From assembly GCA_046546095.1 (NCBI GenBank), contig JBKGYK010000004.1:1-57627 (forward strand): 57,627 nucleotides of DNA, given 5' to 3'. Every line of letters starts with the position of its first letter. Position 1 is the stretch's first letter. The DNA comes from Bacteroidales bacterium. GTDB taxonomy: Bacteria; Bacteroidota; Bacteroidia; Bacteroidales; ML635J-15. The notes beneath the pieces are model-generated. The model was given only the letters and a program-made list of their open reading frames with translations. It was not told the origin of the DNA and searched no databases. This document shows positions 3,545 through 53,622 of this stretch, in pieces. A program made the position numbers and the translations under genes.

Positions 3545-3832
3545 CTTGAAATATCCCTGCATGAGGGCACCTGCCTGCCGGCTTACAAGGCGTGGCTTTC
3601 CGGTGTAGGGCTTTTGCGCTGATGGAATGGCCTGCCTGAACATGCCCGCATCCGGATTCATGAAAACATGCAATTTTGGCAGTTGTATTGTCATTTTAGC
3701 ACAGGCTGGCAGATATTCATAATGTGATGTAATGATCACAAAATCAAATATATAGATTAAGGTTCGAATGGCATTGCCTGTCTGGTTTCGTTGTGGTACG
3801 TATTTTGCCAGTAAATGCAGCAAAGAACAATT

Positions 3833-4414
3833 ATGATTACACAGGTCATACAAAATTACGATGAACTTCAGGATGTGATTAACAGACATTCGGATGTGTA
3901 TTGTTTGCTGTATAAGCCGGAAAGCGAATTGAGTAAATGTGCTACAGACAGGCTTGGTGAAGCAGCAGAAAAAGGCAAGGATGGAGTCATGTGTCTTGTG
4001 GATGTCAGCCAGGTAAATGATATACATCCGAAATATCATGTTACTGCCGCGCCAACATTGCTGGTTTTCAAAAACGGGAAGCAAAACAATCAGATAAAAG
4101 GCTGTAACGATACGTCTTTTTATGAAAACCTGTTCAATGGAAGTTATTTTGTCAGTGCAGGTGATGATGGAAAGCCCCAAAAACGGATTACTGTCTATAC
4201 TACGCCTTCATGCACGTATTGTACTACCCTGAAACGTTACCTTGACAGTATGCAGGTAAAATACCGGGAGGTGGATGTGTCAGGAGATGCCCGGCAGGCA
4301 GAGGAGTTGATGAAACGTACCGGACAGCAGGGTGTACCACAAACCGATATAAATGGTAAATTTGTGGTCGGATTTGATAAGAACAAAATTGATCAGTTAC
4401 TGGATATAAATTAA
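3833..4414 (+). CDS. Thioredoxin-like (CXXC-less) / glutaredoxin-like (YruB/NrdH-type) fusion protein
   Basis: N-terminal Trx fold with cis-Pro motif 'AAPTLLVFKNG' but SELS at the CXXC position. C-terminal 'VYTTPSCTYC...GQQGVPQTDING..VVGFD'. Start at 3833 or 3815. Confidence 0.8.
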   Translation: MITQVIQNYDELQDVINRHSDVYCLLYKPESELSKCATDRLGEAAEKGKDGVMCLVDVSQVNDIHPKYHVTAAPTLLVFKNGKQNNQIKGCNDTSFYENLFNGSYFVSAGDDGKPQKRITVYTTPSCTYCTTLKRYLDSMQVKYREVDVSGDARQAEELMKRTGQQGVPQTDINGKFVVGFDKNKIDQLLDIN

Positions 4415-45997: not shown

Positions 45998-46013
45998 TGG
46001 CCTGTTATTTGCA
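45998..46013 (+). promoter_or_regulatory. Sigma54-type -24/-12 promoter upstream of skp
   Basis: TGGCCT-GTTAT-TTGCA; GG-N10-GC spacing; does not match TAnnTTTG. Confidence 0.55.
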
Positions 46014-50960: not shown

Positions 50961-51482
50961 ATGGCCAAAGAATATGTCATAGATGTGTATTATGTGGATG
51001 ACGATGACCTTTATCTGAATTATTTTCGGAAAAGATTTCAGCTTGATTTGCCATACAATTTGCATACATATAATTCCGGAAAAACGTTTATCCGGCAATT
51101 TATTCAGGATTGTAAAAAGCGCAAAAACCAGAAAATTGTAATTCTTGATTATCTGCTGAAAAGCGGCGATGAACCGGATGCAAAAACCGGCATGGAATTG
51201 CTGCCATTGATTAAACATCATAGCCCGGATACAGAAGTGCTTATCCTTTCGGCCAGAGTGAATTACAATATCAAGCCAACTGCTGGAAATTATACTCCGG
51301 CTGCATTCATCAAAAAAGAGGACAATGCATTTGACCACATTTCTGCCACGATTAAACGCATTGCTGCAAAATACGAGCTGGATAAAAAACAAAGTCAAAG
51401 CAGAACTGCAACCCAGGTGTTTGTCGGTGTGCTGATGGCTGCCGTTTTTGCATTTCTGATCATGTACTTTGTCAACAATTAA
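50961..51482 (+). CDS. Stand-alone receiver-domain protein with a C-terminal TM anchor
   Basis: 'VDDDD', 'ILDYLL', 'ILSA', 'FIKK'; C-terminal 'VFVGVLMAAVFAFLIMYFV'. Confidence 0.82.
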   Translation: MAKEYVIDVYYVDDDDLYLNYFRKRFQLDLPYNLHTYNSGKTFIRQFIQDCKKRKNQKIVILDYLLKSGDEPDAKTGMELLPLIKHHSPDTEVLILSARVNYNIKPTAGNYTPAAFIKKEDNAFDHISATIKRIAAKYELDKKQSQSRTATQVFVGVLMAAVFAFLIMYFVNN

Positions 51483-51527
51483 ATCAGCATTGACAGCCAA
51501 TCTGCCTTTTTGTCACATTATCTTTGG

Positions 51528-51543
51528 TGGCACAACCTTTGCA
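51528..51543 (+). promoter_or_regulatory. Sigma54-type -24/-12 promoter upstream of htpG
   Basis: TGGCAC-AACCT-TTGCA matches the TGGCAC-N5-TTGCW consensus. Confidence 0.65.
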
Positions 51544-51573
51544 AACTTGAGGGAAACAAAAAATTAAGAGATT

Positions 51574-53622
51574 ATGCGCAAAGGTAAAATAGATGTCACC
51601 AGTGAAAACATTTTTCCTGTGATCAAAAAGTTTCTGTATTCAGACCACGAAATTTTTCTCAGGGAGATTGTCTCCAATGCTGTGGATGCTACCCAGAAAC
51701 TCAAAACACTTGCCAAACGAGGCGAGTTTGATCAGCAAATGCCGGAAGAAACAATTCGTGTGAAAGTTGACAAGGATGCAGGGACAATCACCGTAAGTGA
51801 TTTTGGTATAGGAATGACAGAAGAAGAAGTGATTAAGTATCTGAATCAGATTGCCTTCTCAAGTGCTGAAGAATTCCTGGAAAAATATAAAGATGATGCC
51901 AATGCGATCATTGGTCATTTCGGACTGGGTTTTTTCTCAAGCTTTATGGTTAGTGAGAAGGTTGAAGTGGTAACAAAATCCTGGAAAAAAGACGCAAAAG
52001 CTGTTCGCTGGGAATGCTCCGGTAACCCGGAATATGCTATTTCTGATGCAGAAAGAGAGCATATTGGTACCGATGTGATCATGCATATTGATGAAGAAAA
52101 CAAAGAATTTCTGGAAGATTCAGAAATTCAGACACTCCTTGATAAATACTGTAAGTTTTTGCCTGTACCCATTGCTTTTGGTAAGAAAAAAGAATGGAAA
52201 GATGATCAGGAAATAGAGACAGATGAAGACAATATAGTCAACAATACAAATCCTGCATGGACACAACAACCTGCTGACCTTAAGGATGAGGATTACAAGG
52301 CTTTTTACAGAGAACTTTATCCTACTTTGTTTGATGAGCCGCTCTTCCATATCCATTTGAATGTGGATTACCCTTTCAATCTGTCCGGTATCCTGTATTT
52401 TCCAAAAATCCGGCAAAATATTGACATACAAAGGAATAAAATTCAATTGTACAGCAATCAGGTATTTGTAACCGATTCTGTGGAAGGCATTGTACCTGAA
52501 TTCCTCACCTTGCTGCATGGTGTGATTGATTCACCCGACATCCCCCTGAATATTTCACGCTCATATCTGCAAAGTGACAGAAATGTCAAGAAAATCTCAG
52601 GACATATCACCAAAAAAGTTGCGGATAAGTTGCAGGAAATCTTTAAAACTGATAGAAAGCAGTTTGAAGAGAAATGGGATGATCTCAAAGTGTTTATCGA
52701 ATATGGCATGATTTCGGAAGAAAAGTTTTACGAGCGTGCCAAAGACTTTACTTTGCTGAAAAATTCAGAAGGCAAATATTTCACGCTTGAAGAATACAAA
52801 AATATCATTAAAGAAAATCAAACCGATAAGGACAAGCAGTTGATTTATCTCTATGCCACGGATAAGGATGCACAATATACCTATATCAATGATGCCAATG
52901 ACAAGGGATACGATGTACTTCTTATGGATGGACAGATCGATGCACATTTTGTGAATCACCTGGAAACGAAACTTGAAAACACGCGTTTTGTAAGGGTTGA
53001 TTCTGATGTAGTTGATAAGCTGATTAACAAAGATGAGAAAAAAGAAAGCAAGTTAAAGCCCAAAGAAGAAAACAGACTTACATCTGTGTTTGAATCTCAG
53101 GTGCCCTCTGAAGGCAATTTTATTGTAGCTCCCGAACCACTGGACGAGAAGGCCATGCCTGTGATGATTACCCAGGAAGAGTTTATGCGCAGAATGAAAG
53201 ACATGTCAAAGCTCAGCGGTGGTATGTACGATAATCTGCCCGATTCATACAAACTGGTGGTCAATACCAATCACCCGTTGATCGGCAACATTAGCAGCCA
53301 GGCAAATGAATCTCTGGGTAAAGATCTGGATAAACTGGAAAGCGAAATCGAAGAGCTTAACACAGAAATAAACAAGCTGGATGCTGCACAAAAAGAGAAG
53401 AAAGAAGAGGAAGTAAAACAGGAAGAAAAGGATAAGTTGAAAGATCTGCAGGATACCCTCGGGAAAAAGCAGGAAAACAAAAGAGAAAAACTGCAGTCAT
53501 TTGGCAGAGATACAAAACTTGTCAAACAACTTGTTGACCTTGCACTCTTATCCAACAATATGCTGCGCGGGGAGGCACTGAATAAATTTGTGCGCAGATC
53601 CATTGATTTGATAGAGGACTAA
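51574..53622 (+). CDS. htpG: Molecular chaperone HtpG (Hsp90)
   Basis: 'EIFLREIVSNAVDA', 'DFGIGM', 'IIGHFGLGFFS', 'GVIDSPDIPLNISRS'. Confidence 0.97.
   Translation: MRKGKIDVTSENIFPVIKKFLYSDHEIFLREIVSNAVDATQKLKTLAKRGEFDQQMPEETIRVKVDKDAGTITVSDFGIGMTEEEVIKYLNQIAFSSAEEFLEKYKDDANAIIGHFGLGFFSSFMVSEKVEVVTKSWKKDAKAVRWECSGNPEYAISDAEREHIGTDVIMHIDEENKEFLEDSEIQTLLDKYCKFLPVPIAFGKKKEWKDDQEIETDEDNIVNNTNPAWTQQPADLKDEDYKAFYRELYPTLFDEPLFHIHLNVDYPFNLSGILYFPKIRQNIDIQRNKIQLYSNQVFVTDSVEGIVPEFLTLLHGVIDSPDIPLNISRSYLQSDRNVKKISGHITKKVADKLQEIFKTDRKQFEEKWDDLKVFIEYGMISEEKFYERAKDFTLLKNSEGKYFTLEEYKNIIKENQTDKDKQLIYLYATDKDAQYTYINDANDKGYDVLLMDGQIDAHFVNHLETKLENTRFVRVDSDVVDKLINKDEKKESKLKPKEENRLTSVFESQVPSEGNFIVAPEPLDEKAMPVMITQEEFMRRMKDMSKLSGGMYDNLPDSYKLVVNTNHPLIGNISSQANESLGKDLDKLESEIEELNTEINKLDAAQKEKKEEEVKQEEKDKLKDLQDTLGKKQENKREKLQSFGRDTKLVKQLVDLALLSNNMLRGEALNKFVRRSIDLIED

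Follow-up and report, generated by a model that had tools for sequence, protein, structure and literature searches.

A conserved sigma-54-type promoter and a candidate activator-binding box upstream of htpG in the Bacteroidales

We analysed a stretch of 57,627 nt (the window) from contig JBKGYK010000004.1 of a Bacteroidales bacterium (assembly GCA_046546095.1; genome of 2.94 Mb, 42.6% G+C), with the region upstream of the chaperone gene htpG as the subject of study. The gene is preceded by the element TGGCAC-AACCT-TTGCA (TGGCACAACCTTTGCA), which, judged from its conservation, is a genuine and deeply conserved sigma-54 promoter, and by a 13-bp box, TGCCT-TTT-TGTCA (TGCCTTTTTGTCA), which we infer to be a conserved protein-binding site (Table 1). 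On balance we think it probable that htpG is transcribed from this promoter and that the box is the docking site of a sensor-less activator that drives a proteostasis regulon. A promoter of the sigma-54 type at htpG is already known for the phylum and is not new in itself; the box, its spacing and the candidate activator are what the comparison adds.

The sigma-54 promoter core of htpG

TGGCACAACCTTTGCA is an exact match to the consensus TGGCAC-N5-TTGCW, with its two doublets one helical turn apart. The string TGGCACN5TTGC occurs once in the window and five times in the genome, where about 3.7 occurrences are expected from base composition, so the match to the core sequence proves nothing by itself. 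We took 80 htpG loci from Bacteroidales genomes, at 59–99% protein identity, of which 79 are other than the window's own. The motif YGGYAY-N5-TTG lies within 200 nt upstream of htpG in 77 of these 79 loci, against a chance expectation that we estimate at about 0.006 per locus, and this conservation places the promoter above chance. The two loci that lack the motif are L043 and L061, the latter having no upstream sequence. Together with the presence of rpoN in the genome (see below), these counts bear out the sigma-54 promoter that a first-pass annotation of this DNA had proposed at htpG.

We built a weight matrix from 76 htpG loci, excluding the window and its 99% relative. By this matrix the window site is the best in its genome, both for the core (19.6 bits) and for core plus box (30.6 bits), in agreement with the earlier view of htpG as the strongest member of a chaperone regulon. 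The core matrix places 501 of its 598 genome matches inside genes. Taken singly, core consensus, core matrix and box are uninformative; the evidence comes from conservation and from the pairing of box with core.

Across the 76 loci, a peak of purines lies 27–29 nt after the T of TGGCA, which fits a transcription start at 51554–51556. The -24/-12 arithmetic, counted from the GG and GC doublets (Table 1), leads to the same A51554 that the first-pass annotation had predicted as +1.

That the element is read by another sigma factor, for example one of the extracytoplasmic function type, or is a chance match without promoter function, we regard as highly improbable. Such an origin would fit the unremarkable frequency of the exact consensus in the genome (5 vs ∼ 3.7) and the variation of the -12 C among relatives. 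However, the spacing of the conserved blocks (GG-N10-G) corresponds to about one helical turn rather than to the 16–19 nt found in promoters of the sigma-70 family, and conservation in 77 of 79 loci excludes chance. Moreover, published transcription starts 3' of the same motif have been assigned to sigma-54, and the conserved bases of the motif have been confirmed by mutagenesis at another promoter (PMC9723704).

A 13-bp box at a fixed distance from the core

Alignment of the 76 loci on TGGCA brings out a further conserved block, which spans -25 to -13 as counted from this anchor. Its consensus is T-G-n-C-A-(A/T)-W-T-T-G-t-C-A, with the general form TGnCn-N3-TGnCA. TGNCA pentamers concentrate 12/13 and 20/21 nt from the core, and the exact box pattern TGnCnnnnTGnCA is present in 35 of the loci, 24 of which have a spacer of exactly N12. 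The box of the window's htpG has the joint-highest box score (10.9 bits) among the candidate sites of the genome. Its centre is situated about 20.5 bp upstream of the -24 GG, and this distance of roughly two helical turns places the box on the same DNA face.

In searches for specificity, we used the reversed pattern as control. Box-N12-core gives 18 matches in 26 relatives and none with the control; 17 of these matches precede htpG and one precedes dnaK. With a spacer of 11–13 nt, the combination is found 36 times in 50 genomes of the class Bacteroidia (control, 2) and 10 times in 151 genomes of the phylum's other classes (control, 4). The genes 3' of those Bacteroidia matches whose loci were fetched encode HtpG (10), DnaK (6), ClpB, GroES, the thioredoxin TrxA and a few other proteins; two further matches precede what we take, from the first residues only, to be likely rhomboid-family and LemA-family proteins. 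Box and core together mark chaperone genes across the class Bacteroidia. The box is absent at non-chaperone sigma-54-like sites of the genome, for example the one at C55:1313. Full-text searches of the accessible literature found no paper that describes such an upstream site or names an activator.

The first-pass annotation had described a regulatory inverted repeat, TGACA-N15-TGTCA, in this region. Its TGTCA arm falls within the conserved box and stands, whereas the TGACA arm and the N15 spacing are a feature of the genus. The distal TGACA with N15 to TGTCA is kept in the same-genus loci L114, L116, L117, L118, L121 and L122 and in L009; its position is not conserved in other Bacteroidales, and pentamers 32–33 nt from TGGCA occur in 7 of the 76 loci. 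When the window is shuffled 100 times, 12 of the shuffled sequences contain one or more copies of TGACA-N15-TGTCA, and the repeat as such is weak evidence. The distal TGACA is probably an auxiliary third half-site. A footprint across Bacteroidales htpG promoters, which had been suggested as a check, finds the core and the TGTCA-bearing box conserved, but neither the distal arm nor the putative -7 element TATCTTTG (see below).

A distal box candidate, TGCCGTTTTTGCA (51440–51452), lies 75 nt from the core, much like the distal boxes of dnaK and hsp20 described below. It is located in the 3' end of the upstream open reading frame (ORF), where same-genus relatives read ...TTTAGCA, and we rejected it as coding conservation.

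Among the 76 htpG loci, the box and the -12 GC are inversely related (Fisher 3.6e-8): 11 loci have the box with GC, 49 have the box without GC, 15 have GC without the box and a single locus has neither. Box-bearing promoters mostly read TTGA or TTGT at -12, and box-less ones read TTGCA. The window's htpG promoter belongs to the minority with both the box and the canonical GC. Only about three changes on the HtpG tree are needed to account for the box-less state; the association thus rests on about three independent events and is weaker than the Fisher p suggests.

Sigma-54 and the candidate activator

The sigma-54 holoenzyme binds its promoter but cannot open the DNA alone, and requires an AAA+ enhancer-binding activator. 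The genome carries rpoN (PF04552 at C72:5631-6104, 2.1e-54); the open frame has 486 aa and the product, counted from the ATG, 478 aa. The gene is also present in all of the 26 other genomes checked.

Two AAA+ enhancer-binding activators are encoded in the genome, at C12:43937-45181 and C3:37147-38370. The C12 protein (414 aa) is composed, according to Pfam, of Sigma54_activat (residues 12–178), an AAA lid (184–263) and HTH_8 (368–409). No sensor domain is present at the N-terminus, and the AAA+ part is joined to the helix-turn-helix (HTH) by a linker of some 100 aa. The C3 protein consists of a receiver and an AAA+ domain with no DNA-binding domain, which makes the C12 protein the genome's only activator with such a domain. 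The C3 activator may serve the non-chaperone sigma-54-like sites before surface and lipoprotein genes, for example those at C55:1313 and on C5. The loops that contact sigma-54 read GSFTGA in the C12 protein and GAFTSA in the C3 protein, both of them variants of the canonical GAFTGA.

An ortholog of the C12 activator, by full-length alignment, is present in 25 of the 26 genomes. In about 10 of these 25, no other activator is found at E <= 1e-20, and all of these sole-activator genomes have rpoN and a sigma-54-type htpG promoter. A promoter of this type is present in all 26 genomes with the exception of that of L043.

A box (TGCCATTCTGTCA) also precedes the gene of the C12 activator itself, 76 nt upstream of the ATG, and is not accompanied by a sigma-54 core. 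Exact boxes precede the activator orthologs of four further genomes, compared with about 0.3 expected over 21 regions by our estimate. Some of these four are Prevotella-like, and there the box lies 11 nt ahead of a -7 element, TAnnTTTG, in a position that suggests autorepression. The activator gene is followed by lptE (Pfam LptE) and then by a small hydrophobic ORF, which we take from its sequence to be secG.

We infer that the sensor-less activator is the most likely binder of the box. It is the only HTH-bearing activator, its ortholog is found in 25 of 26 genomes and is the sole activator in about 10, and a box is present at its own gene. The distance between box and core also varies at dnaK, hsp20 and clpB, which is an enhancer-like behaviour. 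An alignment of 21 orthologs reveals a conserved segment of about 13 residues, SEREILYQILFDM (approximately residues 279–291), in an otherwise variable acidic linker; this segment may be a docking site for a negative partner or an oligomerisation element.

Co-occurrence of activator and box was considered as a test of the latter and discarded, since the ortholog is also found in the clades that lack the box and thus does not discriminate. In those clades the recognition helix of the activator is slightly different and reads SDRTLYRR instead of SERTLYRK. The response regulator RprY, which is reported to bind the groES, dnaK and clpB promoters in Porphyromonas gingivalis, was rejected as a regulator here because it showed no binding to the htpG promoter in that study (PMC3646045).

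A predicted chaperone regulon

Sigma-54 cores precede dnaK (TGGCATAATGATTGA), clpC (TGGCATAATTGTTGG), grpE-dnaJ (TGGCAGGCAATTTGT), clpB (TGGCTTGCAATTTGA) and hsp20 (TGGTATGCAGTTTGA) in this genome, and a core of the same kind lies before the gene of a secreted thioredoxin-like protein. These chaperone and protease genes share the sigma-54 motif with htpG and are predicted to form a proteostasis (heat-shock) regulon. The box is also present in a proximal position at hsp20, grpE-dnaJ and clpB, the last of which has two boxes, and in a distal position at dnaK. The dnaK and hsp20 boxes located 74 and 75 nt, respectively, from their cores are at classical enhancer distance.

The window contains two further sigma-54-like elements (Table 1). 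The one before the tandem skp genes, both of which are OmpH/Skp by Pfam, is a weaker match than that of htpG, with C instead of A in the -24 element. The other, TGGTACGTATTTTGC, precedes a gene whose product matches Glutaredoxin and Thioredoxin in Pfam. Its end and the first ATG in the long frame are 7 nt apart, less than the distance of about 12 nt from -12 to a transcription start. This gap is too short for TGGTACGTATTTTGC to be the promoter of the gene, unless translation begins at a codon further downstream.

On contig C85 (positions 1–376), groEL has a box, TGTCATTTTGACA, at 233–245 and only a defective core, TGGCATAAAATTCG; there is no groES gene directly upstream on the contig. Upstream of lon, no sigma-54 core is evident in this genome.

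Proposed mechanism and the repressor alternative

In the mechanism that we propose, htpG would be transcribed from the sigma-54 promoter with a start near A51554. The C12 protein, the one activator of the genome with a DNA-binding domain, would dock at the TGCCTTTTTGTCA box on the same DNA face, aided by the distal TGACA. With its HTH held at -45, the protein could, by virtue of a long and flexible linker, bring its ATPase ring to sigma-54 at -12 with no need for looping. The same circuit would drive hsp20, grpE-dnaJ and clpB through proximal boxes and dnaK through a distal box, and clpC, groES and skp are probably under its control as well. As for the activating signal, we would guess that a chaperone or some other negative partner lets the activator go, in the way that PspF is freed by PspA.

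A wider proposal joins three claims, and we regard the chances of this joint reading as evenly balanced. First, TGnCA-N3-TGTCA would be the enhancer of a heat-shock circuit common to the class Bacteroidia, with the sensor-less PspF-like activator as its master regulator. Second, close docking at -45 by means of the ∼ 100-aa linker would substitute for the canonical -12 GC. Third, the activator would be restrained by a chaperone or partner acting on the conserved helix of the linker.

Several observations weigh against the activator mechanism. Classical sigma-54 enhancers are situated at -80 to -150 and act by DNA looping; the htpG box, at -45 with a fixed 12-nt spacer, lies much closer and misses the distance of about 80–150 bp, and a repressor or an architectural protein may fit this position as well. 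By itself, the box is no more frequent in intergenic DNA than expected (46 matches, with 46 expected), and in this genome neither dnaK nor clpC has a proximal box. Prevotella-like and rumen Bacteroidaceae-like clades have a perfect htpG core, TTTGGCACGnnnTTTGCA, and no proximal box; since these clades keep the core, the activator ortholog and its HTH, the box is not obligatory. Furthermore, most of the 76 htpG loci have GA or GT at -12 in place of the canonical GC, which is unusual for sigma-54, and the contact loop of the C12 activator reads GSFTGA rather than GAFTGA.

Some of these points would suit a different role of the box. The promoter might be sigma-54 dependent with the box as the operator of a repressor or other non-activator protein, which would block the holoenzyme or the activator until stress. 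A box near -45 abuts the footprint of the holoenzyme, which is atypical for an enhancer, a point that the first-pass annotation had also made; the clades that keep the core without the box point to activation with no strict need of it; and the box 11 nt before TAnnTTTG at the activator gene of Prevotella-like genomes is in a repressive position. Nevertheless, we consider such an operator unlikely. At dnaK and hsp20, the boxes are some 75 nt away from the core, too far for a repressor to occlude the promoter. Most box-bearing loci (49 of 60) show a weakened -12, as though the presence of the box made up for it by a positive effect. The box is also the only motif that co-varies with the promoters, and the sole HTH-bearing activator must bind somewhere, whereas no candidate repressor gene was identified. 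Taken together, the sequence evidence leans towards an activator site rather than a repressor site for the candidate box.

The dual-promoter question

The first-pass annotation had read the region as a pair of promoters, one basal and one for stress, with TATCTTTG as the -7 element of the former. TATCTTTG fits TAnnTTTG, the -7 consensus of Bacteroidota, at every position, and since sigma-54 promoters are silent without their activator, a sigma-A promoter that provides basal transcription from about 51531 would be physiologically sensible; it would also be compatible with stress transcription from the sigma-54 promoter. However, the comparison does not support this part of the annotation. TATCTTTG recurs only in the same-species relatives L008 (99% identity) and L117, and TAnnTTTG occupies the spacer position only in the window, L008, L117 and L078, the other same-genus genomes having different spacers. 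No -33 TTTG is present 19–21 nt upstream of TATCTTTG. Within 150 nt upstream of htpG, TAnnTTTG occurs in 6 of 77 loci, and the expectation from shuffled sequences is 6.0, so that Bacteroidales htpG is generally without a recognisable sigma-A promoter. Finally, a sigma-A promoter at this place would overlap and compete with the -24 element. The -7 match is best read as fortuitous, although it may still have weak activity in this strain, and dual promoters seem to us rather unlikely.

A sigma-70-type scan of the region gave matches on the minus strand only and was set aside, as its model is not applicable to Bacteroidota.

Comparison with known systems

The transcription start site map of Flavobacterium psychrophilum (Guerin et al. 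2021, ISME Commun, PMC9723704) describes a motif, SM4, with the -24/-12 elements of sigma-54. SM4 is found upstream of groES-groEL, lon, dnaK, grpE-dnaJ, htpG, skp and clpB, most of which belong to one co-expression cluster (PMC9723704). Since the same motif stands before the same set of genes, the htpG promoter described here is a further case of a known regulon. The -24/-12 motif and the shared chaperone genes are common to both; in contrast to the Flavobacteriales studied there, our case lies in the Bacteroidales, and the box, the N12 spacing and the candidate activator are added here by computation. The F. psychrophilum paper notes three PF00158 proteins, and a keyword search of its main text finds neither an activator assigned to the motif nor an upstream box (PMC9723704). 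A survey of sigma-54 regulons (PLoS One 2025, PMC12316311) reports sites enriched at chaperone COGs in Bacteroidota, including the HSP90 COG0326 for Bacteroidia. Unlike our analysis, the survey uses a weight matrix of the core promoter only, and its main text contains none of the terms UAS, upstream activating and PspF. For P. gingivalis, classic CIRCE sequences are reported to be absent from the heat-shock promoters (PMC3646045).

Like PspF of E. coli, the C12 activator lacks a sensor and combines an AAA+ domain with a Fis-type HTH at its C-terminus. It also has a box close to the gene that encodes it, a hint of autoregulation. From this architecture, control by a partner protein in trans would be expected. 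PspF sites in E. coli lie about 80–130 bp upstream and act with looping assisted by IHF. In contrast to the psp system, the main box here is directly adjacent to the promoter, at -45, the conserved helix SEREILYQILFDM is found in a linker of ∼ 100 aa, and the targets are cytoplasmic chaperones and not pspA. The output, a co-ordinated induction of dnaK, groE, clpB and htpG, would be the same as with sigma-32, HrcA/CIRCE and HspR/HAIR; unlike these, the regulon proposed here would employ an activator-dependent sigma-54 promoter instead of a sigma factor of the sigma-70 family or a repressor operator.

For heat-shock control in Bacteroidota, which include gut Bacteroides and Prevotella, oral Porphyromonas and fish-pathogenic flavobacteria, the promoter type is known and no regulator is named in the accessible literature. 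The htpG locus provides a clean example of a full-consensus promoter, and comparison with its relatives contributes a defined cis element and one candidate activator. The question of the regulator thereby becomes directly testable.

The htpG locus

All motifs of the first-pass annotation lie where it had placed them, including the htpG ATG at 51574. The features of the window are listed in Table 1.

Table 1. Coordinates of the features in the 57,627-nt window
Feature	Positions	Strand	Description
Third sigma-54-like element, TGGTACGTATTTTGC	3794..3808	+	Before thioredoxin/glutaredoxin-fusion gene 3815-4414; core 16.4 bits; no proximal box
Second sigma-54-like element, TGGCCT-GTTAT-TTGCA	45998..46013	+	34 nt before skp-skp; between bamA and tandem skp
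Upstream ORF	50961-51482		173 aa, receiver-like; 27.1 bits vs Pfam cut-off of 30.2
Distal TGACA pentamer	51491..51495	+	Left arm of the repeat in the first-pass annotation
13-bp box, TGCCT-TTT-TGTCA (TGCCTTTTTGTCA)	51503..51515	+	Candidate protein-binding site; exactly 12 nt upstream of TGGCA; centre near -45
Spacer	51516..51527	+	12 nt; fixed length, free sequence (columns with almost no information); contains TATCTTTG
Proposed sigma-A -7 element, TATCTTTG	51519-51526	+	Match to TAnnTTTG; inside the 12-nt spacer, 48 nt before the ATG
Sigma-54 promoter core (predicted), TGGCAC-AACCT-TTGCA (TGGCACAACCTTTGCA)	51528..51543	+	GG 51529-30 = -25/-24; GC 51541-42 = -13/-12
Predicted transcription start	51554..51556	+	A51554 to A51556, from -24/-12 arithmetic; leader of about 18-20 nt, A-rich, unstructured
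htpG	51574..53622	+	Hsp90-family chaperone, 682 aa; Pfam HSP90 (3.6e-48) and HATPase_c_3

The upstream ORF resembles a degenerate receiver domain with a hydrophobic C-terminal tail. As a dedicated regulator of htpG it was rejected, since its synteny with htpG is limited to the genus and its score is below the Pfam cut-off. An RNA thermometer or other leader structure was likewise dismissed, because the leader has only about 20 nt and the region 51483–51600 folds no better than shuffled sequences (z = 0.37).

Between 51483 and 51600 of the window, there is no terminator of the upstream gene that would overlap the promoter. Such an overlapping terminator does exist in other clades. In a clade of Barnesiella, Bacteroides and Coprobacter-like genomes (L033, L034, L035, L047, L048, L050, L055, L059, L063, L075 and L085), the spacer from TGTCAG to CTGGCA forms a self-complementary stem whose sequence varies while its pairing is kept, as in CAGACC..GGTCTG and CAGCCTC..GAGGTTG, followed by the core GGCATTTTTTTTG. 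The htpG promoter of this clade, with no equivalent in the window, doubles as a terminator-like hairpin with a T-run.

One of the loci, L058, is labelled Acutalibacteraceae (Bacillota), yet its HtpG nests in the Prevotella-like clade beside L072, and its contig is probably mis-binned.

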